Source: Aulosira sp. ZfuVER01
GTDB lineage: Bacteria; Cyanobacteriota; Cyanobacteriia; Cyanobacteriales; Nostocaceae
Assembly: GCA_034530615.2 (NCBI GenBank)
Contig: JAVRCV020000068.1
Coordinates: forward strand, 79,393 to 143,392
Length of the DNA: 64,000 nucleotides
Direction of reading: 5' to 3'
In this document: piece after piece, positions 8,973-23,611 of the stretch
Position numbering within the stretch: position 1 is the first letter of the stretch
How the letters are laid out: every line of letters starts with the position of its first letter
Notes under the pieces: model-generated
The model's database searches: none
The model's input: the letters and a program-made list of their open reading frames with translations, nothing else
What the model was told of the DNA's origin: nothing
Made by a program: the position numbers and the translations under genes

Positions 8973-10979
8973 TCAGTTATGATGAAAATGTTTTTGTAAC
9001 ATTACCAGCCAGGCTTGAATAGCAGATTTTAATCTTGCTCTTTCAGTTTCTTTAATACCTTGAGGATCGAAGCGATCGCGGTAATGCAGTTCAACTAGCG
9101 ATGTCAAATCAGCAATTAAATCTGAGCTAGGTAATTCTTCTTCCAGTCTCTTGATCCAGTTTTTTAAAGACTCTGAAGGATGACGGCTTAAACCTAACTC
9201 TTGTAACCTTTTTTCAATTAAATAAAATTCATAATCTCTTTTATTTACATCAGATTTTGCAACTTGTTTAGTTAATATTTGTTTCGTAGATAAACGGCGA
9301 ACTTGATTCTTAGAATTAAACTTCCACAACCGCAGAAATATTAATGGCAAAATCAGCCACCATCCATATTTAAATAGATTGCTAACTAAACTAGAACGTA
9401 ACCAGCCTGAGAGTTTGAAACTAAAAAACGACCATAAATCAGAGATAAATGCTAATTTAGAAGCATTTGCATTCTCAATACTTGTCCAATCAGCAGGTGT
9501 GGTGTCAAAAGCTTGCCATCTACCATTTATATATGCCAATGTCCAAGCATGAGCATGGCGGCTACGAACTATGTATTGGTTCTCTAATTGGCTAAATTCG
9601 TGAACCGAATACCCTACAGCATAACGCGCTGGTATACCCGCCGCCCGTAAAAGCAGTGTGGTTGCAGTGGCAAAATATTCACAGTGTCCAGCGCGAGTTT
9701 TCAATAAAAATGTTGATAAAGGTGTTGACTGATTGTTTTTACCTGTAAGTTTCAAAGAATAACGAAAATTTTTAATCAAAAAGCTATCCACACGTTCTAA
9801 AATTGCTTGGGGCGATTTTCCTGTAATATCTAGTTGCCTAATAATTTGGTTTACTGCTTCTCTTTCTGATTTGGCTATTTGCAGATCGTCTTCTGTTGGT
9901 GGGCTATCCAAAGAAAGACTTTTATTAAATAAGATTCGGTAAGCGATCGCATCAGTTTTTCCCTCTACTTTCACCGTACCATATTTATTTTTCTCCATTT
10001 GGCTGACTGGTAATTCTTCAATTTCAAATGTTCCGTCAGCTAGCCTTAACAAGCCTTTACCTTGATTAAGGGTTGCAGAAATCGTAAGTTTTGAGCTATT
10101 GCCTGAGTTATTGCCTAAACGCCAACTCTTACCATTAATCTCAGGTTGTACAGGAGTAAAAGTAGAATTTGATGCCACCCAAAAAGCAGATTTATATTTA
10201 TCATAAGTTGCTTCTTTTAGCAGCCCGGGAGCAACTTTTTGACTATCAGCAGCAACTCGAAAAATAATCTCATTTGACTGTTTTAATGTTCCAATCTCAC
10301 CGATACTAGTTTGCTTTGTTGTTGAGTCTGTTAGTTGTCCAATACTGTTATTATTGCTTAACCATGCAACAACCGTATCTTCTAACTTCTGTTGTAGATG
10401 ATATACACCTATTTGTCCTATAAATCCCATAATTCCAGCAAGCAGAATGAGACTCAGCCAAATACCAGGTGAAAATCGTTGCGATCGGATATACCAAAAG
10501 GCAATACTTGTCAGTAAAAACATCCCGATATAAAAAGATATATCCCTAGTATTAGCGACTCCAGCAGATAAAATACAGAGAGCAAAATAGGGATAACCTA
10601 AACTAATAATGTAGCTGTTTGATTCTGCTTTAATGAGATTTTTTAATGATACAAAAAGTGTGCGAATATCAATACTTTCATTTACAGAGTATGTTTGAGC
10701 AGCCAGCAGGGGAAAAAATACTAATGGAAACCACTGCAACAGAGTATAAACTAAGTAAATTGAGCGTTGAGTAGTTAAAAGAGAAACAAATACAATAATC
10801 AGAATCATCAAACACAGATTAGCAATGCGTCGGAAATCATCAGGGGAGAAATCCCAACGCGAGTTAATCAAGCGATATCCTGATAAAATCGCAGCCATTG
10901 GTATGGCAAAAATCCACATTCCTGTCTGCCAACCCCAAAAGATTAAAGCAGCACTCAGGAGAAGCACTGGCGCTTTCAT
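8973..10979 (-). CDS. Transglutaminase-like membrane protein (TgpA type)
   Basis: Multiple TM helices; GHCEYFA, HAW and FDTTP catalytic-triad motifs. Confidence 0.88.
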   Translation of the reverse strand: MKAPVLLLSAALIFWGWQTGMWIFAIPMAAILSGYRLINSRWDFSPDDFRRIANLCLMILIIVFVSLLTTQRSIYLVYTLLQWFPLVFFPLLAAQTYSVNESIDIRTLFVSLKNLIKAESNSYIISLGYPYFALCILSAGVANTRDISFYIGMFLLTSIAFWYIRSQRFSPGIWLSLILLAGIMGFIGQIGVYHLQQKLEDTVVAWLSNNNSIGQLTDSTTKQTSIGEIGTLKQSNEIIFRVAADSQKVAPGLLKEATYDKYKSAFWVASNSTFTPVQPEINGKSWRLGNNSGNSSKLTISATLNQGKGLLRLADGTFEIEELPVSQMEKNKYGTVKVEGKTDAIAYRILFNKSLSLDSPPTEDDLQIAKSEREAVNQIIRQLDITGKSPQAILERVDSFLIKNFRYSLKLTGKNNQSTPLSTFLLKTRAGHCEYFATATTLLLRAAGIPARYAVGYSVHEFSQLENQYIVRSRHAHAWTLAYINGRWQAFDTTPADWTSIENANASKLAFISDLWSFFSFKLSGWLRSSLVSNLFKYGWWLILPLIFLRLWKFNSKNQVRRLSTKQILTKQVAKSDVNKRDYEFYLIEKRLQELGLSRHPSESLKNWIKRLEEELPSSDLIADLTSLVELHYRDRFDPQGIKETERARLKSAIQAWLVMLQKHFHHN

Positions 10980-12325
10980 ATATGCATTAGTTCCTCTTGT
11001 ATTTTTCCCAACTTCAAAAAGTGTAATTTTGTTATTTGATCGTTCATATAATCTGAATCAAACTTATCTAATTTACCTTCCTTATCTGTAACGATCAAAA
11101 CTAAAGTATGGATACCCATACTCTTGAGATAATTAACTAATCTTTTCCTATCTTCGTCCCAACAAAGAAATATACATATACAGCCACTCAACAAAGATAG
11201 TTTCTCCAGCACTACTGGAATAATAGAATCAAAAGATTTATCTCGACAGGCAACAACAGATGCGAGAATTTCTAGCATTTTGTCAGTATGGCTCAGTCCT
11301 CTGCCAAAGGTAAAACAATAAGCTTCATTACCAACAAACATCAAATCTAATAATGATTCTTGGGTTTGAACTTCACAAGCTAATGAAGCCGCAATTGATA
11401 TTGCTTCTTCTAAAATTTCGCTATAATTCACGCTTTGAAATGTATCTAAAATCAATGCGTGTCGAACAAAAAACTCATCTTGTTCTTCTTTGACAATTGG
11501 CTTTCCAACTTTTGCCCAGCTTTTCCAGTGAATTTTTCGCAGCGAATCTCCCAGACGATAATCGCGTAAAGACCTAAATTCCTCTGAATCACCTACAGAA
11601 GAGGCTAACGCCACACCACCAGATTGATGTTTCTTGACACCTGGAAGTTGAACTGGTGGCAGTTGATATAACTTAGGTAAAATCAATAAAGATTGGGGTA
11701 AAGAAATACTTTTACACGCTTTAAAAAGTCCAAAAGGATCGGGTCTAGCTACTGTCATACCCGTAATCCGAATAATACCTCTTTGAGTAGGTATGATTTC
11801 ACCAATAACTTCAGTTTTGCTATTTGGTACAAGGGGAGGTAAATCTATTGGTAAAGCGTTACCACATTGTTTGCGAGAAATTAACCACAGCCAACGATTG
11901 TATCCCAAAGAGCGAACAAATGAATTATGCCGAACTTTTCTATTTTCAAATGTTTCTATGAAATCCTTAAAACTTGGGCGAGGGTCAGCAAAATTTTCAA
12001 ATATTTTTAGTCCTTTTTGGATTTTGTCGCTTTTGTTATGAATTACAATTTTGTACTTCAGTTTTACACCCACAGTTGCGAATTGGGGTAGATTGCGATT
12101 AGCACTAAAATGATAGCGAAACAGCAAGCTTGAAACTACAGATATGATGAGAATAGATAGCAGAAAAGTGACTATCTGATAGTTCATGCTTTCATTACTA
12201 GAACCAGTTAAAGCGGCTGCGATCGCTATTACTGAAACAACCACGCCACTAACAGTAACTCGTCTGCTTAGTTTGCGGTGAATACCATAACTGAAATAGA
12301 AAAGACGATAGATAAAAAGTTTCAT
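10976..12325 (-). CDS. DUF58 protein
   Basis: EFRSLRDYRLGDSLRKIHWKSWAK motif; lies between moxR and the transglutaminase gene. Confidence 0.88.
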   Translation of the reverse strand: MKLFIYRLFYFSYGIHRKLSRRVTVSGVVVSVIAIAAALTGSSNESMNYQIVTFLLSILIISVVSSLLFRYHFSANRNLPQFATVGVKLKYKIVIHNKSDKIQKGLKIFENFADPRPSFKDFIETFENRKVRHNSFVRSLGYNRWLWLISRKQCGNALPIDLPPLVPNSKTEVIGEIIPTQRGIIRITGMTVARPDPFGLFKACKSISLPQSLLILPKLYQLPPVQLPGVKKHQSGGVALASSVGDSEEFRSLRDYRLGDSLRKIHWKSWAKVGKPIVKEEQDEFFVRHALILDTFQSVNYSEILEEAISIAASLACEVQTQESLLDLMFVGNEAYCFTFGRGLSHTDKMLEILASVVACRDKSFDSIIPVVLEKLSLLSGCICIFLCWDEDRKRLVNYLKSMGIHTLVLIVTDKEGKLDKFDSDYMNDQITKLHFLKLGKIQEELMHI

Positions 12326-12340
12326 CTTTCACGTTTGCTA

Positions 12341-13303
12341 TCAAACTGGAACAGGAACAGATTTGAGGATATCTTCAACAACACTGGTGGCGGTTCTACC
12401 AGAGAAACGCGCTTGCGGTTCCATAACAAGGCGATGAGCAATTACAGATACCGCAAGTTCTTGGATATGTTCTGGCGTGACAAATTCATAGCCATCAAAC
12501 AAGGCTAATGCTTGAGCAATCTTCATTAAAGCAATAGATGCTCTGGGGCTAGCTCCTAATTGCACGCCTTGGGCAGAACGAGTAGCATTGACAATATCTA
12601 CAAGGTAGGTTTTCAATTCCTGAGAAATACGAATTTGTCTGACCTGCCGTTTTAAAGTAATGATGTCCTGCAAGTCAATGCAAGGTTGAATTATATCAAT
12701 AGGGTGCTGTTGGATTTGGTCTGAAAGCAGGTTAACCTCGTCTTCCGGCGATATGTATCCCAAACTAAACTGAAGTGCAAAGCGATCCATTTGGGCTTCT
12801 GGAAGAGGATAAGTACCACGGGATTCCACTGGGTTCTGAGTGGCGATGACAAAAAACGGGTCTTTTAGTTTTCGCAAATTCCCATCAATGCTGATTTGAA
12901 ACTCTGCCATAGCTTCTAGTAGTGCAGATTGAGTACGCGGTGAAGCCCGGTTAATCTCGTCAGCCAAAACAATATGCGCGAAAATCGGGCCTTCGTGGAA
13001 ATGAAAGGTACGTTCGTTTGGGTCAAGCATCGAAATACCCAAGATATCCGAAGGCAAAAGATCTGGTGTAAATTGAATGCGCTTGAAACTTACATCTACA
13101 GAGTATGCTAGGGCTTTCGCTAAGGTGGTTTTGCCAGTTCCGGGATAATCTTCTAGGAGTACGTGTCCCCCACTAGCAAAGGCTGACAGCAATTTTCTGA
13201 TTGCTGCTGATTGCCCTTTTATAACCTTTTGAATGTTGTTAAAAATTCTTTGATAAATTTCTTTGCTGGGCAAATCATGAGGCTTCGGGTAAGAATTCTC
13301 CAT
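12341..13303 (-). CDS. moxR: MoxR family AAA+ ATPase
   Basis: PGTGKT, RIQFTPDLLPSD, DEINRA, ATQNP, YPLPEAQMDRF. Confidence 0.93.
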   Translation of the reverse strand: MENSYPKPHDLPSKEIYQRIFNNIQKVIKGQSAAIRKLLSAFASGGHVLLEDYPGTGKTTLAKALAYSVDVSFKRIQFTPDLLPSDILGISMLDPNERTFHFHEGPIFAHIVLADEINRASPRTQSALLEAMAEFQISIDGNLRKLKDPFFVIATQNPVESRGTYPLPEAQMDRFALQFSLGYISPEDEVNLLSDQIQQHPIDIIQPCIDLQDIITLKRQVRQIRISQELKTYLVDIVNATRSAQGVQLGASPRASIALMKIAQALALFDGYEFVTPEHIQELAVSVIAHRLVMEPQARFSGRTATSVVEDILKSVPVPV

Positions 13304-13457
13304 TTTCCTTCATCACACAGAATGTCATGAAGTTAATGTACCCATTTGCCCCATATAACTTTGTATTCTTCTCTGCATCATTGCAAAATGCCAGAGTCTG
13401 CGCTGAATTAGGTGAAAAAGAGCGATCGCAACCCACACAGCGATCGCTTCCCGAATA

Positions 13458-14153
13458 TCATTGCCTAGCAAAAGCTAAGTCAGATTCAATGAACTTTGCA
13501 CCTGTTAGGTTAGCCCCAGTTAAATTACAGAAGTGAAACTTTGCTCCTCTTAGATCTGCTAGCGCTAAATTTGCTCCTGTTAAATCTGCATTAGTAAGGT
13601 TAGCCTCACTTAAATTCGCCCTAGTTAGATTCGCCCCCCTCAGATTTGCTTGTTGCAAGTTTGCTTGAGTTAGGTTTACCCTGACTATCTGCGATCCTCT
13701 CAAGTTGGCTTCACTTAAATTTGCTTGGCTGAGGTCTGCTGCTGTTAAATCAGCTTGACTGAGGTCGGCTTGATTTAGTACAGCCCAACTTAACTGTGCA
13801 TGGCTCAAATTAATCTTATTCAGCTTCAATGATGTCAGCACTGCACATCTCAAGTTGGCATTAATAAAATTCCTTTCTCCAATTGCGTAACGTCGCAATA
13901 ATTCATCAGTGGTTAATCTGGCTAAAACAGCTTTTGTAGCGCCTTGATAACACCATGTAGCTTCTGTTAATTTGGCAGCAGTATTAACAGCAACCTCATC
14001 ACATTGGTCTAATATCACTCCATTACAACCATCCCATTGACCATTGAGCATTAGCGCAATTTCATTAGCAGCAACTATTGAATTAAATAGTAAAACAGAT
14101 TGTTTTTTGGAATTTAAGGAGCTAATCAAGCTAATTAATATATTATTTTTCAT
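13458..14153 (-). CDS. Pentapeptide repeat protein
   Basis: A(D/N)Lxx repeats after RRYAIGERNF. Confidence 0.9.
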   Translation of the reverse strand: MKNNILISLISSLNSKKQSVLLFNSIVAANEIALMLNGQWDGCNGVILDQCDEVAVNTAAKLTEATWCYQGATKAVLARLTTDELLRRYAIGERNFINANLRCAVLTSLKLNKINLSHAQLSWAVLNQADLSQADLTAADLSQANLSEANLRGSQIVRVNLTQANLQQANLRGANLTRANLSEANLTNADLTGANLALADLRGAKFHFCNLTGANLTGAKFIESDLAFARQ

Positions 14154-16216: not shown

Positions 16217-16855
16217 TTACAAATATAAGGATTGAACAGCCAGATCCTTTAAGGTAATGGTAAAGTTACGCTGCTCTTGTGTAGCAATGAATGCGATAGT
16301 TGCCTCACACGCCACAGCAACAGTTAACATCACCAAATTTCGCGCTAGAGGATAATCACAGACATCATCATTGACATCAGAAGGAACGCGATAAACATCA
16401 TTCCAAATTACTTCTGCATAATCGGCTGCTAGTCCAACATGAAGGCAGGGAATTTTTGAACGATCGGCATAATCTTTCACTGCTTGACGTGACAAGCTGT
16501 TGTCAAAAACATCAATAATTAACTGGCTATCTTGAAGTAGTTGATCTGCATTTGCTGATGTCAACTCCTTTGTTTTGGCATCAACTTTAGTACCAATTGC
16601 TCGGTATAAATTATTTGCTAGGATTTTCGCCTTAATTGCTCCAACATCGGAACGGTAGTAAGGCTGGGTAGAAAGGTTACGTTCCTCAATGCGATCGCGA
16701 TCGATTACCGTAAGTTTATCAAAACCAGACCGAGCCAAGTTTTCTGCAATGTTAGCTCCTAACGCTCCAGCCCCACAAATGGTTATAGGATAATTCTTGA
16801 GCTTTGCCATCACAGCATTGCTGCGGTAAAGCTGTTCGTGAAAAAAAATACTCAT
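16217..16855 (-). CDS. ThiF/E1-like adenylyltransferase
   Basis: GAGALG, DRDRIEERNLSTQ, KAK, DVFDN motifs. Start placed at MSIFF, 5 nt after the upstream stop. Confidence 0.9.
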   Translation of the reverse strand: MSIFFHEQLYRSNAVMAKLKNYPITICGAGALGANIAENLARSGFDKLTVIDRDRIEERNLSTQPYYRSDVGAIKAKILANNLYRAIGTKVDAKTKELTSANADQLLQDSQLIIDVFDNSLSRQAVKDYADRSKIPCLHVGLAADYAEVIWNDVYRVPSDVNDDVCDYPLARNLVMLTVAVACEATIAFIATQEQRNFTITLKDLAVQSLYL

Positions 16856-16860
16856 TGTCC

Positions 16861-17694
16861 TTACCACTCTTGTTGTTCCATCACAGCCACTAAAGATTGC
16901 AAATCAAAATCGCGATCGCGTCCACTCAAGCAAATCCCAGAACTAATTACAGTCAAATCAGATTTAGCGATCGCACTAGTGTGGCGAACACCATCAGCCG
17001 TTCTCCAATCCACTGTCCAGTAATCACCGCGATCGTGAAATTGGCGTAATTCACCGCCACCCATTCGCAATGCTTTTCTTAGCCGTTTTTCATCCTGTTG
17101 CGGTTGTGCAAATCCCTCAATCCGCTGAGTTGCTAATTCATACAATGTCCGGATTTCTGGAGTAATCCCTTTGAACTGTAATTCCTCAGCAGGAGTCAGT
17201 TGCTTAACAGCAGATTGCAGAGTTTCCACAATTGCTGGATCGGTACGGCGATCGATTTCCTCAAACCAGCAGGATTGTCCATTCCAACGAGCGATAACTT
17301 GCTCAAAAACAACACCCTCAGTTACTAGATGTACTGCGATCGGTTTGACTACCTTCAACCGTTGACGCATATCTACTTCATTCACAGGATATGCTAACCA
17401 AGTTTGTCCTCGCAGTTGGTGTGCTAATCTCAGCCGTATTTGGGGAAAGTGTTGCAAGTATTCTGCAATTTGGGGTAAGTCTGCTTCTTCCACAACTGTT
17501 GCTGTCTTCGTATCGACTGGCTGAAAGATACCCCAACCTTCAAATTGATTATGCTTTGGCGTAAAGGTGTAAACCATCCCAGCTACTCGTGTGCGAACTC
17601 GTCCACCTTTGACACAAGGGGCGATAAATTGAGTTGCACACAACTGTGCTTCTGCACTAGCAATTTGGTTGATTAGCTTACGGATGTCAGTCAT
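16861..17694 (-). CDS. Hypothetical protein, C-terminal SGICLSG (possible E2-like Cys)
   Basis: 277-aa ORF tightly coupled to the ThiF gene; family not recognised. Confidence 0.75.
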   Translation of the reverse strand: MTDIRKLINQIASAEAQLCATQFIAPCVKGGRVRTRVAGMVYTFTPKHNQFEGWGIFQPVDTKTATVVEEADLPQIAEYLQHFPQIRLRLAHQLRGQTWLAYPVNEVDMRQRLKVVKPIAVHLVTEGVVFEQVIARWNGQSCWFEEIDRRTDPAIVETLQSAVKQLTPAEELQFKGITPEIRTLYELATQRIEGFAQPQQDEKRLRKALRMGGGELRQFHDRGDYWTVDWRTADGVRHTSAIAKSDLTVISSGICLSGRDRDFDLQSLVAVMEQQEW

Positions 17695-17765
17695 AGCTCA
17701 CGCATAGACGCAAAGAGGATGTTTATACGTCAATTCAGCAAAGTTAGAGAATTTATATAATTATT

Positions 17766-17975
17766 TCCCGCGTGCAAGTTGGTGGAGCATTGCGTGTTCT
17801 CAGTTACTAGGGGGACTCCGCTGGTGAGTTGTTACACACTCTTTCAAAGATGGCTACTTTTAAGCCCATTTTCCAGGTTCTTCGCACTCCCCGTTCACAC
17901 ACGCCCACTGTATTTGACAGTGTTACTTTTCCTCTCGTACTAGTATGTAGGCTCCAAGAGTTAGGGCACGCAGGA
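17766..17975 (-). ncRNA. Scaffold RNA A: carries sarcin-ricin-loop mimic and 23S H42-44 mimic
   Basis: Terminal stem UCCUGCGUGC/GCACGCGGGA; CCUAAC/AACUU loop; CUAGUACGAGAGGA at 17943-17930; 56-nt GTPase-centre-like segment at 17876-17821. Confidence 0.85.
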
Positions 17976-17979
17976 TATT

Positions 17980-18006
17980 TATATAATACAACATACTACA
18001 AAAAAT
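17980..18006 (-). promoter_or_regulatory. Candidate promoter/operator (TGTAGTAT + TGTATTAT) for RNA A
   Basis: Minus strand reads TTTTGTAGTATGTTGTATTATATAAAT just before RNA A; the same motif occurs at 23809-23857. Confidence 0.45.
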
Positions 18007-18178
18007 AAATACCAGAGATTAAAAGAGATATGTTGCAGTAGTGCGATCACTGCCGCTTCATATACCTACTTCATTTCGCTCATCAATATCAACTCCTTAA
18101 GTTGAGCGATCATCCGAATTAGAAAACATAACTTTATTTATGCTACAACAAGTTACATATGTATTAATGAATTAGGTT

Positions 18179-19546
18179 TTGATGATGTCTGAAAATATAT
18201 ATTTCACAAAAAAAGGTAAATTTAGCCATGAGCTAGCATTGAACGATCTCAAAGAAATCCAAACTTCAGTCCGCTCAATCGCTAGTGAAAAACCTTTGAC
18301 GATGAGTCATACAAATTCAGATGGTGTATCAGAGGTTATTGAATTGACTGAATTGCCTTTAGATATTCTTCTTAACCAGAAGCAAAAACAGGTGGTATCT
18401 AACATAGCTAAGAGTTTTGCAAAAGGGAATAGCTTTGAAGAAAATGTTTCTAGTAATTTTATTTATGAAAAGTTTCTGAAATTACTAGCAAAAGAAAATT
18501 TTTATTTAGCTGATACATTTACTGTTTCTGATTCATTATCTCTTTTTGAAAATTTGAGGGTGATAATTGAGCAAGAAATTTCAACTGTAAAGCTGAATAT
18601 TATTACTGTAATTGGGGCATCTCTTAAGAAAGGCAATATCTGTGAAATTGGCTCAATTAAGTTTATGAATCCGTCGGACTTTATTGACAAGCATAAACTT
18701 TTGTTTGAGAGTCTTGTTAATTATAATGAAGGATTGCAAACTTATCTAGAAGTTTTTCATAAATCTGACTTAGTAGCACAGGTGAGCATTAAAAATAGGG
18801 ATACTGCTACATCTAAAATGGTAACAAATGAAATAATGAAAAGAATCTACACCCTTATTAGATTAACTATCCCAAGTAGTGGGGGACGATATAACTTTTT
18901 TGGGACTCTTGGTGAAGAATATTTAGAATCTAGATTTTCTTTCTTATTTCATACTGATTCAAGCAACGAAGAAATAGTAAAATCTATATCAGTTGAACGC
19001 ACAAGTAATCGGTTTTCAGATAGTAATATAGATTTAATAGAAACTATACTTCCTCATAAACAAGTAAATCAATGGTTTACTCGTATTGAGCTAATCATTA
19101 GTAAATTTGTTAATGATAAAAAATTAACTGATTTTGAAAAAAGGATATGGACAGCCCTTTATTGGTATGGAGAATCTATGTCAGAAAGAGAATTAAATCC
19201 TTTGATAATTAAATATGCTACTTGTCTTGAAGCATTATTTAATAGTCGTGAAGGTGGAATAAGTGAACAAATTTCTGAGTTTACTGCTTATGTGGTTGGT
19301 AAAAACAAAGATGAAAGGATGAAAGTCTACAGTAATATTAAGAAACTATACAGCTTAAGATCTACTGCTGTACACGGAGGCTCTGTTGTAGGACATGTGG
19401 ATAGTAATTTTCTATCTCAGATTATGTTAATATGCGAATCTGCATTGCTTCAAATGGCATATTATTCTCAAGAGGATTACTATCAAAATTCAAAAGGATA
19501 CGAAAAATTTGTGCAATACATTCTTAGAGAATATAGGTTTATTTGA
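18179..19546 (+). CDS. HEPN-domain (ApeA-like) ribonuclease
   Basis: C-terminal CLEALF ... LYSLRSTAVHGG (RxxxxH) motif; AT-rich; antisense to its neighbours. Confidence 0.8.
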   Translation: MMMSENIYFTKKGKFSHELALNDLKEIQTSVRSIASEKPLTMSHTNSDGVSEVIELTELPLDILLNQKQKQVVSNIAKSFAKGNSFEENVSSNFIYEKFLKLLAKENFYLADTFTVSDSLSLFENLRVIIEQEISTVKLNIITVIGASLKKGNICEIGSIKFMNPSDFIDKHKLLFESLVNYNEGLQTYLEVFHKSDLVAQVSIKNRDTATSKMVTNEIMKRIYTLIRLTIPSSGGRYNFFGTLGEEYLESRFSFLFHTDSSNEEIVKSISVERTSNRFSDSNIDLIETILPHKQVNQWFTRIELIISKFVNDKKLTDFEKRIWTALYWYGESMSERELNPLIIKYATCLEALFNSREGGISEQISEFTAYVVGKNKDERMKVYSNIKKLYSLRSTAVHGGSVVGHVDSNFLSQIMLICESALLQMAYYSQEDYYQNSKGYEKFVQYILREYRFI

Positions 19547-19610: not shown

Positions 19611-21185
<1,575 letters not shown>

Positions 21186-21301: not shown

Positions 21302-21702
<401 letters not shown>

Positions 21703-21731: not shown

Positions 21732-21861
<130 letters not shown>

Positions 21862-22716: not shown

Positions 22717-22860
22717 AATTCCGCACAAGTTAGCAAAGCAGTTTTCACAATTGCCTTTACCATTTTGGCTACGCTCCCATATAAGGGAGCGACAGGAATC
22801 GAACCTGCATATCCTTTCACAGATAGTGTGTGTATGCTTCACAAGTTAGGGCGCGGAATT
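22717..22860 (-). ncRNA. Scaffold RNA D: circularly permuted tRNA cargo (YrlA-like topology)
   Basis: Order is T arm GCAGG-UUCGAUU-CCUGU, loop-closed acceptor CGCUCCC-UUAUAU-GGGAGCG, UA, D arm GCCAAAAUGGUAAAGGC. Confidence 0.85.
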
Positions 22861-22876
22861 AAATCTTAAATGTTTA

Positions 22877-23055
22877 CCATGCAAGTTCAAGAAGCTTTTT
22901 ACAACTACGGTCGCTCTTACCAAATATTGGCAGTGGGCACGCACGCTAAATCTGCAAGAGACTTAGAAATCATGCTTCGCTGGTTCGATCGCTCGAATTT
23001 TACTACCTTAGGGCCGTTATCAATGTGTATGTATGCTTCTTGTGTTAGGGCACGG
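22877..23055 (-). ncRNA. Scaffold RNA E: permuted 23S rRNA H67-H71 (H69) mimic cargo
   Basis: AUAACGGCCCUAAGGUAGUAAAAUUC at 23020-22995 and GGUAAGAGCGACCGUAGUUGUAA near the 3' side, inside the scaffold arms. Confidence 0.8.
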
Positions 23056-23068
23056 ATGATTAGGCGTA

Positions 23069-23284
<216 letters not shown>

Positions 23285-23339: not shown

Positions 23340-23548
23340 TGGATCTGATCGGGATTGAACCGATACCCTCCCTGTGAGAGTTGCACTCACACCTCATGCG
23401 AGTTGAAAAAGCTGTGGTAACACACGCAGGAATCGCACCTGCACTTATCGTTTAAAAAGCGATCGCTCTACTATTGAGCAAGTATGTAAGCTTCTTCTGT
23501 TAGGGCACAAGTGAAATCCGGGATCTCTACCGTTAGAGCTACAGACCC
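23340..23548 (-). ncRNA. tRNA-like shell with its anticodon loop replaced by scaffold RNA F
   Basis: Acceptor GGGUCUG/CAGAUCC-A, D arm GCUC-UAACGGUA-GAGA, T arm AUCGG-UUCAAUC-CCGAU. Confidence 0.75.
23393..23511 (-). ncRNA. Scaffold RNA F: tRNA-Lys(UUU)-like cloverleaf cargo
   Basis: CUUGUGC/GCAUGAG stem, CCUAAC/AACUC; D arm GCUC-AAUAGUA-GAGC; anticodon loop UUUUUAA; T arm GCAGG-UGCGAUU-CCUGC; internal ACCA. Confidence 0.8.
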
Positions 23549-23611
23549 AAGTTTGCATGATTGCTCTGCTCTGATTGCAGTCATTGCAACTTCAATCAAA
23601 GTCAAAGCAAG

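Follow-up and report, generated by a model that had tools for sequence, protein, structure and literature searches.

The stretch of DNA analysed here, called the window, comprises 64,000 nt of the cyanobacterium Aulosira sp. ZfuVER01 (Nostocaceae; assembly GCA_034530615.2, contig JAVRCV020000068.1, positions 79,393 to 143,392) and encodes a structured RNA of about 210 nt, termed RNA A (17767-17975; coordinates refer to the window, and its features lie on the minus strand unless stated otherwise). RNA A is non-coding, stands alone between protein genes, and unites in a single molecule copies of two separate regions of 23S rRNA, the sarcin-ricin loop (SRL, helix H95) and the GTPase-associated centre (GAC, helices H42 to H44). 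The GAC copy is held by compensatory evolution that includes a tertiary base triple. RNA A is located 1.6 kb downstream of, and on the same strand as, a gene encoding a divergent Ro60 homologue, and the scaffold formed by its two ends recurs in five further units of the window on the same strand. We tentatively regard RNA A as a trans-acting, Y-RNA-like partner of the Ro60-type protein that would act as a bait or sentinel for proteins recognising the SRL or the GAC, a reading in which our confidence stays somewhat short of even. The original prediction, made without database searches, had described the GAC copy; it missed the SRL, the shared scaffold, and the Ro60-like gene, and these change what RNA A most likely is.

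The copy of the GTPase-associated centre

A search of positions 17760-18000 against all Rfam families with cmscan gave a single match, a gap-free alignment of 17821-17876 to H43/H44 of large subunit (LSU) rRNA, which corresponds to positions 1052-1107 of the Escherichia coli 23S rRNA. The best model was that of the archaeal LSU rRNA (model positions 1179-1234; 39.9 bits, E 1.5e-10); all posterior marks of this alignment were maximal, and two of the 14 consensus pairs were non-standard. Matches to two further LSU models of that clan overlapped with it and were suppressed. The score of 39.9 bits falls under the LSU gathering cut-off of 50 bits, which is set for whole rRNAs. At gathering thresholds, Rfam reported only two tRNAs and no LSU match over the window, and an E-value scan of 1.8 kb missed the LSU match, which was seen only with the 241-nt stretch. 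When the bacterial LSU model was applied to eight relatives, three isolated 56-nt matches were obtained beyond the true 23S rRNA (52.3, 51.4, and 47.3 bits; model positions 1093-1148), all of which are RNA A in three genomes of the same genus.

Since no 23S rRNA gene was found in the window's own assembly, reference sequences were taken from relatives and from E. coli MG1655 (rrlH). The 56-mer had been placed correctly at 17876-17821 in the original prediction, and its proposed colinearity with 23S rRNA agrees with the gap-free cmscan alignment. Its identity to rrlH is 39 of 56 positions, exactly as counted by hand before. The pair changes listed at that time are likewise exact against rrlH: 1053-1106 is altered from CG to UA, 1054-1105 from AU to GC, 1058-1080 from UA to AU, and 1092-1099 from CG to UA, together with C to U at position 1072 and a change of the GC pair 1059-1079 to an A.C mismatch. 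The nucleotides A1067 and A1095 of the L11/thiostrepton site, which were said to be kept, are present in the window copy and invariant in the 55 distinct in-register 56-mers described below.

Compared with the 23S rRNA of the genus, 41 of 56 positions are identical and 15 differ. Double compensatory changes are found in the pairs 1054-1105, 1058-1080, and 1092-1099; position 1072 is changed along with 1092-1099, 1062-1076 forms a new pair, and 1059-1079 is now A.C. The differing unpaired positions are 1056, 1061, 1065, 1068, 1078, and 1097. The compensatory change proposed for 1053-1106 holds against E. coli, but the U-A pair is found in the genus 23S rRNA too and is therefore not specific to RNA A. 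Because the RNA stands alone, has no LSU match at the gathering score, and departs from the genus 23S rRNA at 15 of 56 positions, it is classified as a mimic and not as rRNA.

Selection on the rRNA fold

Homologues of RNA A were collected by two independent routes, one starting from the neighbouring Ro-like protein, the other scanning metagenome contigs for a pattern of SRL core and GAC loop at a spacing of 45-75 nt. The protein route used the best 80 of 227 genomic loci, nearly all of them from Nostoc-type cyanobacteria and one from a member of the Leptolyngbyaceae. The pattern scan yielded 33 matches. One of them lies by chance in coding sequence, and the other 32 are genuine copies, some on contigs of 56-63% GC, in which the Ro protein shows 58-60% identity. 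Both routes together gave 92 copies from cyanobacterial genomes and metagenomes with 60 distinct 56-mers. Of these, 55 were in register, five had a one-base insertion, and one was partly deleted. The insertion is located in the 3' strand of H43 (CCAUUCC compared to CCAUCC; five distinct homologues, at loci L110, L075, L019, L030, and others) and shifts the register of the fixed 56-nt frame. Two alignments were used, A1 with 59 sequences of close copies and A3 with 27 diverse sequences.

Among the 60 distinct 56-mers, the pair 1053-1106 is UA in 43 and CG in 11, 1054-1105 is GC in 52 and AU in 4, 1055-1104 is GC in 46, AU in 7, and GU in 2, 1058-1080 is GC in 42 and AU in 16, and 1082-1086 is UA in 56 and CG in 2. 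When the Rfam structure of H43/H44 was imposed on the 27 diverse sequences, 99.2% of 378 cells were paired, compared to 27-62% with the partners slid, and double compensatory changes were detected at six of the 14 pairs. The covariation score of 0.286 (shuffled mean 0.146) was reached by none of 500 shuffles. The triple 1072.(1092-1099), which we take to be the known tertiary base triple of the L11-binding fragment, reads U.UA in 48 of the 55 in-register 56-mers, C.CG in four, C.UA in two, and U.UG in one; C1072 accompanies all four C-G pairs at 1092-1099.

The earlier suggestion of selection on structure rather than decay is thus borne out by compensatory pairs and by covariation of the triple across the 92 copies. 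A functionless relic, that is, 23S fragments captured by a mobile element and now decaying, would be in line with the 41/56 identity to the genus 23S rRNA and with the mobile appearance of the locus. We consider it extremely improbable, since two 23S sites about 1600 nt apart are joined in one 210-nt fold with a scaffold that is not derived from rRNA, the RNA is conserved over 92 copies, in part beside Ro proteins with as little as 58-60% identity, and shows compensatory changes and covariation of the triple, and the functional loops of the 56-mers are invariant while the stems vary. The motifs did not arise by chance: the window contains one instance of the 12-mer AGTACGAGAGGA, which none of 100 shuffles contains, and the scaffold motif was counted five times in the window versus zero expected.

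The copy of the sarcin-ricin loop

The SRL mimic occupies positions 17924-17945 and contains the universal 12-mer core AGUACGAGAGGA at 17930-17941, which precedes the GAC loop of RNA A by 63 bases. The run of identity covers 13 nt with the 23S rRNA of the genus and 14 nt with E. coli (2652-2665). None of the 59 rows of A1 departs from this core; their sequences were gathered via the protein and not via the motif. Constrained folding of the region with RNAfold was uninformative because of the non-canonical nature of the motif. In 23S rRNA, the SRL and the GAC are separated by about 1600 nt and are described in a passage of PMC2330231 as jointly forming the factor-binding centre.

Overall fold of RNA A

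The extent of RNA A, from the 5' to the 3' strand of its terminal stem P1, was derived from A1 and A3. RNAalifold predicted 51 pairs for the 27 diverse copies, 25 of them with compensatory changes. In a hand-built structure of the 59 close copies, 97.3% of cells were paired versus 33-52% when slid. The predicted order of elements is P1, a conserved internal loop, P2, and a junction, from which the SRL region, a variable hairpin, and a long arm consisting of P3, an H42-like helix, and H43/H44 branch off.

The 5' strand of P1 (17966-17974) pairs with 17767-17775 in nine pairs, of which three are double-changed; the same stem was obtained with RNAalifold (pair types CG/UA/AU/GC). The 5' side of the internal loop (17956-17965) consists of CCUAAC and 4 nt and faces 17776-17783 (ACCAACUU); its motif is found in all six units of the window. 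The 5' strand of P2 (GGAGC, 17951-17955) pairs with 17784-17788 (GCUCC), and the stem is lengthened by three covarying pairs in RNAalifold. At the position of P2, the tRNA-like units described below carry AAAGC/GCUUU. Hairpin 2 (17906-17922, CACUGU/ACAGUG) is a variable spacer arm with conserved pairing: its loop-closing pair is CG in 22 and UA in 22 sequences, and in the diverse set its sequence and length vary with the pairing retained. P3, whose 5' strand GCGUGU (17899-17904) pairs with 17792-17797 (ACACGC), encloses the H42-44 arm and shows double changes at two pairs (GC 46/UA 12 and GC 56/UA 2/AU 1).

The flanks of the 56-mer had been proposed to resemble H42 with the L10 site. A covarying helix (GGGGA/UCCCC and two more pairs) is indeed present at the right place, whereas its sequence is only loosely similar to H42. 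The 5' strand of this H42-like helix covers 17877-17892 and the 3' strand 17811-17820. RNAalifold pairs alignment positions 103-106 with 186-189 and 110-111 with 183-184, the outer pair being GC in 18 and AU in 4 sequences.

Deviating copies of RNA A were observed at several loci. Those at L023:9904, L056:3090, L069:9627, and L049:11041 share 85-91% identity over the first ~180 nt, and keep the 5' scaffold, the SRL, and the GAC; beyond this point their sequence is a different one, and the 3' scaffold strand is missing. At L023, L056, and L069 such a copy is an additional second one, and at L049 it is the sole copy found. At locus L009 (and L041), only the 3' 132 nt of RNA A are left, comprising the GAC arm and the 3' scaffold, and unrelated AT-rich sequence takes the place of the SRL and the 5' scaffold.

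A divergent Ro60 homologue upstream of RNA A

The gene upstream of RNA A (19611-21044) encodes a protein of 477 amino acids, which is annotated in databases only as "vWA domain" or "hypothetical" and for which Pfam detects only the vWA domain. A profile built from 48 family members matched human Ro60 (9nen, E 3.7e-16), a phage TROVE protein (1.2e-13), Xenopus Ro (1yvp, 7.3e-13), and Deinococcus Rsr (2nvo, 1.7e-7), and the Pfam domain vWA_Ro60 was found in 10 of the 48 members. The AlphaFold (AF2) model reached a pLDDT of 90.3, and the top 12 Foldseek matches were all Ro60/TROVE proteins (E 3.5e-11 to 4.5e-9, TM 0.57-0.68). According to both profile and structure search, the protein is a divergent Ro60 homologue of the Ro60/Rsr type with a TROVE HEAT ring and a vWA domain. 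Its family comprises 1055 representatives at 50% clustering (E <= 0.001).

At 65 of the 80 Ro loci, RNA A has the orientation of the Ro gene and lies downstream of it. Within 400-nt flanks of the 32 metagenome copies found via the RNA, Ro was detected in four cases, p277 in six, and p69a in two (both genes are described below). On a distant metagenome contig of 60% GC (L102), the order is Ro (60% identity), RNA A, p277 (51% identity); at locus L091, RNA A is located between p69a and Ro. The genes flanking the 80 Ro loci are not conserved. The RNA A pattern was found in 14 of 401 genomes of the phylum and in 8 of 45 of the window's own family, with no match for a reversed-pattern control, and viral contigs gave no match to the SRL..GAC pattern. 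A single copy of RNA A is present in the window's genome.

Further RNA units with the same scaffold

The shared scaffold reads GYGCCCUAAC, 4 nt, RRRGC, and UACAUAC on the 5' side and GCYYY followed by AACUUGCRC on the 3' side, and consists of P1, loop, and P2 in all units. In the 81 sources (the window and the 80 loci), 335 complete units with six payload classes were counted, the P1 stems of which have a median of 7-10 contiguous complementary pairs and 8-28 distinct sequences per class. The minimal unit, consisting of the scaffold and a small hairpin, is located directly upstream of the Ro gene (21105-21171) and present in 74 of the 81 sources. Two units carry a tRNA-like payload, called as tRNA-Leu (UAA; 21738-21854) and tRNA-Lys (UUU; 23395-23508). 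Their anticodon loops are hypervariable on conserved bodies, with 21 distinct 7-nt loops in 59 Leu-class units and nine in 17 Lys-class units, so the called anticodon is not a conserved identity. The payload of the unit at 22722-22854 is a tRNA mimic of the YrlA-like, acceptor-closed type, which matches the Rfam YrlA model weakly (22753-22809; 23.1 bits versus a gathering score of 69).

Unit X (22878-23053), with a payload of no recognised kind, is present in 40 of the 81 sources. Positions 23003-23020 match 23S rRNA 1916-1933 (H69-H71) of both the genus and E. coli at 17 of 18 positions (BLAST E 0.14), and cmscan of the unit gave no LSU match. Judged from this similarity, unit X may be a second rRNA-imitating unit.

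Additional tRNA-like elements were noticed in the genome. At ~23340-23560, the Lys unit is nested between the 5' half (acceptor and D arm) and the 3' half (T arm and acceptor) of another tRNA-like RNA, in which the scaffold, as judged by eye, apparently takes the place of the anticodon arm in a double-headed layout. An 84-nt RNA at 23609-23692 matches both ends of the Rfam tmRNA model and spans its positions 1-374 (43.8 bits versus a gathering score of 47, E 1.9e-15); it represents a tRNA-like domain without the mRNA part. The normal tmRNA of the window's genome is encoded on contig C37. Distant from the Ro locus, contig C32 harbours an array of 28 tRNA genes on one strand (178953-181569), which includes one scaffold-type unit with a permuted tRNA-like payload (5' motif C32:181117-181143).

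Neighbouring genes and expression

The gene downstream of RNA A encodes a conserved protein, p277 (16861-17694), which starts 72 nt behind the RNA and is present in 70 of the 80 loci. Its AF2 model, based on 25 close homologues, was unusable (pLDDT 40.3). The end of p277 overlaps with a gene for a ThiF/E1-like adenylating enzyme (16217-16867; Pfam ThiF E 1.7e-27), which is found in 69 of the 80 loci and matched PADLOC E1-E2 models with E-values down to 3.8e-17. A further conserved protein, p69a (23069-23266), is encoded in 76 of the 80 loci and consists of 65-66 amino acids with a C-terminal Gly. It is conceivable that p69a and the E1-like protein form a ubiquitin-like or sulfur-carrier pair, an idea drawn just from the length of p69a, the Gly at its C-terminus, and the E1-like enzyme nearby. 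Upstream of the Ro gene, a paralogue of the ribosomal protein bL12 (L7/L12) is encoded (21302-21694; Pfam L12 N- and C-terminal domains, TIGR00855 105 bits). The paralogue and the canonical bL12 of contig C48 share 48% identity, and both domains are kept; the hinge of the paralogue has a charged stretch instead of a flexible Ala/Gly-rich one.

An open reading frame (ORF) of 455 amino acids is located on the plus strand between the Ro gene and RNA A (18179-19546). It shows a weak ATP-grasp match (E 0.0095) and a match to a phrog without assigned function; as it occurs in only one of the 80 loci, it is probably an insertion into the locus. A cluster encoding a MoxR AAA ATPase, a DUF58 protein, a protein of 668 amino acids, and a pentapeptide-repeat protein (8973-14153) was rejected as part of the system because it accompanies the Ro gene in only 2-3 of the 80 loci.

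Alternatively, RNA A and the tRNA-like units might be substrates, guides, or competitive inhibitors of an enzyme acting on rRNA or tRNA, with a modifying, repair, or tagging activity provided by p277, the E1-like ThiF protein, or p69a. The order in which p277 and the ThiF-like gene follow RNA A (70 and 69 of 80 loci) is seen also on the distant high-GC contig, the ThiF-like protein matches the model of the tRNA ct6A synthase TcdA (E 1.8e-11, far below the model cut-off), and passages of PMC7824862 regard TROVE proteins with tRNA-like RNA as a repair platform. The best ThiF matches are generic, however, p277 has no recognisable fold, and no ligase, kinase, or nuclease domain was found at the locus, so that a substrate mimic appears improbable. 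An RtcB or RtcA domain was not detected among the 11 neighbouring ORFs scanned against Pfam.

Transcripts were traced in Logan contigs from runs with small word shares (0.06-0.19), which represent relatives in metatranscriptomes. Contigs of 172, 167, and 153 nt from RNA libraries of three studies correspond to 17793-17962, 17794-17960, and 17812-17959; one had a depth of 168. They are located wholly inside RNA A and none extends into the flanking genes, with ends and strand not fixed by these data. Pieces covering only 17823-17866 run into unlike sequence and are therefore real 23S rRNA of other organisms.

The position of RNA A, which ends 72 nt before the start of p277 on the same strand in a conserved adjacency, would also suit a cis-regulatory leader, that is, a 5' untranslated region (UTR) of the p277/ThiF operon that represses expression via a ribosomal protein (r-protein). 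Leaders of r-protein genes imitate rRNA, and the terminator scan found no terminator-like site 3' of RNA A on its strand, its sole such site being hairpin 2 read on the plus strand. Nevertheless, a leader function is quite improbable: the downstream genes p277 and ThiF-like are not r-protein genes, five scaffold units are located elsewhere than upstream of p277, RNA A of L091 lies between p69a and Ro, and, as weak evidence, the RNA-library contigs stop inside RNA A and none reaches p277.

Proposed role of RNA A

The SRL and the GAC dock and activate every translational GTPase, and they are targeted by ricin- and sarcin-type toxins, VapC-type nucleases, and thiopeptide antibiotics. In the bait reading, which we prefer with due reserve, the P1/loop/P2 scaffold would be the handle bound by Ro60, and the variable module would reproduce the site at which translation factors dock, pieced together from the SRL hairpin and the H42-H44 arm, both extending from one junction. 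The Ro ribonucleoprotein (RNP) would display a ribosome-free factor site as a bait for proteins recognising the SRL or the GAC. The targets would most probably be ribosome-targeting toxins or antibiotics of phages or competitors, such as SRL nucleases, glycosidases, and GAC binders. Host uL11, uL10-bL12, and translational GTPases may bind the module as well. Damage to the bait or its occupation might be read by the Ro ring together with the co-conserved p277, E1-like protein, and p69a.

A bait is favoured over a tether by the patchy distribution and the unconserved flanks, which is the behaviour of an accessory or conflict island, and by the hypervariable anticodon loops on the conserved bodies of the sister tRNA-like units. 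The payloads of the locus, namely anticodon arms, a tmRNA-like tRNA domain, the SRL, and the GAC, also argue for a bait, since tRNA anticodon arms, the tmRNA-like tRNA domain, the SRL, and the GAC are classical targets of RNA-directed toxins. Furthermore, TROVE proteins with a tRNA-like partner are proposed in passages of PMC7824862 to be an RNA-repair platform against RNase effectors, which would fit this role. Isolated SRL oligonucleotides bind EF-G and IF2 and retain the specificity of sarcin and ricin, as stated in part of PMC3496166 (citing Endo 1988 and Munishkin & Wool 1997); a natural RNA with SRL and GAC could therefore plausibly bind both host factors and toxins.

The same properties can be viewed in terms of a tether or platform, which we judge possible, albeit on the unlikely side. 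RNA A would assemble uL11, uL10, and bL12 (the paralogue of the locus where present) as a ribosome-free stalk and recruit or sequester EF-G, EF-Tu, IF2, or RelA-type factors beside the Ro ring, which would serve factor availability or ribosome quality control under stress and not the baiting of foreign toxins. A tethering role of Y RNAs, which would link Ro60 to effector proteins, is described in PMC4201824 and 10.1101/312249, the factor-binding centre is built of exactly the SRL and GAC regions according to PMC2330231 in the part cited above, and SRL oligonucleotides bind EF-G and IF2 in the excerpted account of PMC3496166. The nucleotides of the L11/thiostrepton site are invariant, and the bL12 paralogue, which keeps the N-terminal domain (dimerisation, L10 binding) and the C-terminal domain, argues for the platform variant where present. 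It is, however, missing from 52 of the 80 loci, and the patchiness, the unconserved flanks, and the hypervariable anticodon loops fit an accessory or conflict system better than a housekeeping one.

A related model, which we regard as doubtful, combines elements of both roles. RNA A would be a miniature, ribosome-free GAC, in which the SRL and H42-44 arms are placed as on the 50S subunit and uL11, uL10, and the bL12 paralogue are bound. It would function as a trap or activator of GTPases or as a toxin sentinel and would signal through Ro60 and an E1/ubiquitin-like module to an immune or stress response. The locus as a whole would then be a display set of the most-attacked RNA sites, including the tRNA-like units with hypervariable anticodons, the tmRNA-like unit, and possibly an H69-like unit.

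Several observations weigh against the bait reading. The evidence does not separate a decoy from a tether role. Binding of RNA A to Ro, uL11, uL10, and thiostrepton is inferred. The Rfam models Y_RNA and YrlA gave no match on 17760-18000 at E-values up to 10. As RNA A fails these curated models and its binding to Ro is at the level of inference, it is filed as Y-RNA-like and not as a proven member. The closing stem of the SRL comprises two to six complementary bases and varies among the homologues in ways that would permit pairing; the hairpin was not predicted by nearest-neighbour folding, and RNAalifold pairs the region otherwise. The A.C mismatch at 1059-1079 is peculiar to the window copy, with 55 of the 60 distinct 56-mers having G-C there.

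Further points of this kind concern the locus. RNA A had no match in 15 of the 80 Ro loci, a number that may include cut contigs. The bL12 paralogue, encoded 3.4 kb upstream of RNA A in the window, occurs in 28 of the 80 loci and is absent from 52, and a paralogue of uL10 or uL11 is not encoded in the locus. For p277, no family was found in Pfam (E up to 10), NCBIfam, PHROGs, or PADLOC, and the Atlas gave no usable match. No family was found for p69a either, its Atlas matches being unnamed clusters only, nor was one recognised for p239, which is present in 62 of the 80 loci. A nuclease, a ligase, or a known defence effector was not recognised at the locus, where PADLOC matches only the E1-like protein. 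A consensus scan of 17600-18200 gave no sigma-70-like promoter site, and the expression evidence consists only of the RNA-library contigs, which hint, weakly, that RNA A is a discrete and abundant transcript in relatives.

Comparison with known RNAs and implications

The genes of bacterial Y RNAs share the strand of the Ro60 gene and lie at most ~4 kb from it (PMC4201824, as excerpted); in the RNA, the two ends pair into a bulged stem, which is accompanied by a module that imitates tRNA in YrlA (passages of PMC4201824 and PMC12135203). Like the Y RNAs YrlA and Yrn1, RNA A adjoins a Ro60-type gene on the same strand at less than 4 kb. Its ends pair into a stem with covariation that is broken by a conserved internal loop, which by analogy may be the Ro60 site. 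It also shares with them a separate module imitating an RNA of the translation machinery and the presence of several RNAs per locus, as far as these features are described in parts of PMC4201824 and PMC12135203. In contrast to Y RNAs, the module of RNA A imitates 23S rRNA (SRL and H42-44) instead of tRNA, and the sequence of the scaffold is its own. The locus differs from Y RNA loci in that its Ro protein is too divergent for the Pfam TROVE model and its partners are p277, the E1-like protein, and p69a.

With the GAC of 23S rRNA (H42-H44, 1030-1124) and its 58-nt L11/thiostrepton fragment, RNA A has in common a gap-free secondary structure, the invariant A1067 and A1095, and a triple covarying between U.UA and C.CG. 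Unlike the GAC, it is located outside an rRNA gene, is identical to the genus 23S rRNA at 41 of 56 positions, has a shortened H42 part, and is fused with a copy of the SRL. The latter resembles H95 in the universal 12-mer and one or two identical flanking bases. PMC3496166 describes synthetic SRL mimics, 27-35 nt in length, to which EF-G and IF2 bind and which sarcin and ricin cut or depurinate specifically. In contrast to such oligonucleotides, RNA A is natural and genome-encoded; its closing stem is shorter, its 3' side departs from 23S rRNA, and its fold is predicted.

The L10 (rplJ) leader is a cis-acting 5' UTR of an r-protein gene that imitates the protein-contact part of the H42-44 region of 23S rRNA. 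RNA A is similar in being a non-rRNA transcript that imitates an r-protein site of this region; it differs in not being located upstream of an r-protein gene, in containing full H43/H44 together with the SRL, and in its Y-like scaffold. Natural Y-RNA modules described so far are, to our knowledge, tRNA mimics or PNPase-binding elements. A full-text literature search, which did not extend to supplements, so that an earlier mention is possible, retrieved neither a natural trans-acting RNA imitating the SRL or the GAC nor a Y RNA with an rRNA-like module.

A widespread cyanobacterial "vWA domain protein" can be re-annotated as a homologue of Ro60, for which six or more RNAs are putative partners. 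If the partners considered here bind, RNA A would be the natural counterpart of the in vitro "ribosome in pieces" oligonucleotides, and the mimicry in Ro RNPs would be widened from tRNA to rRNA. At 210 nt, it would also be a tractable model for work on how factors are recognised, and it could point to decoys or sensors of a new class in bacteria.

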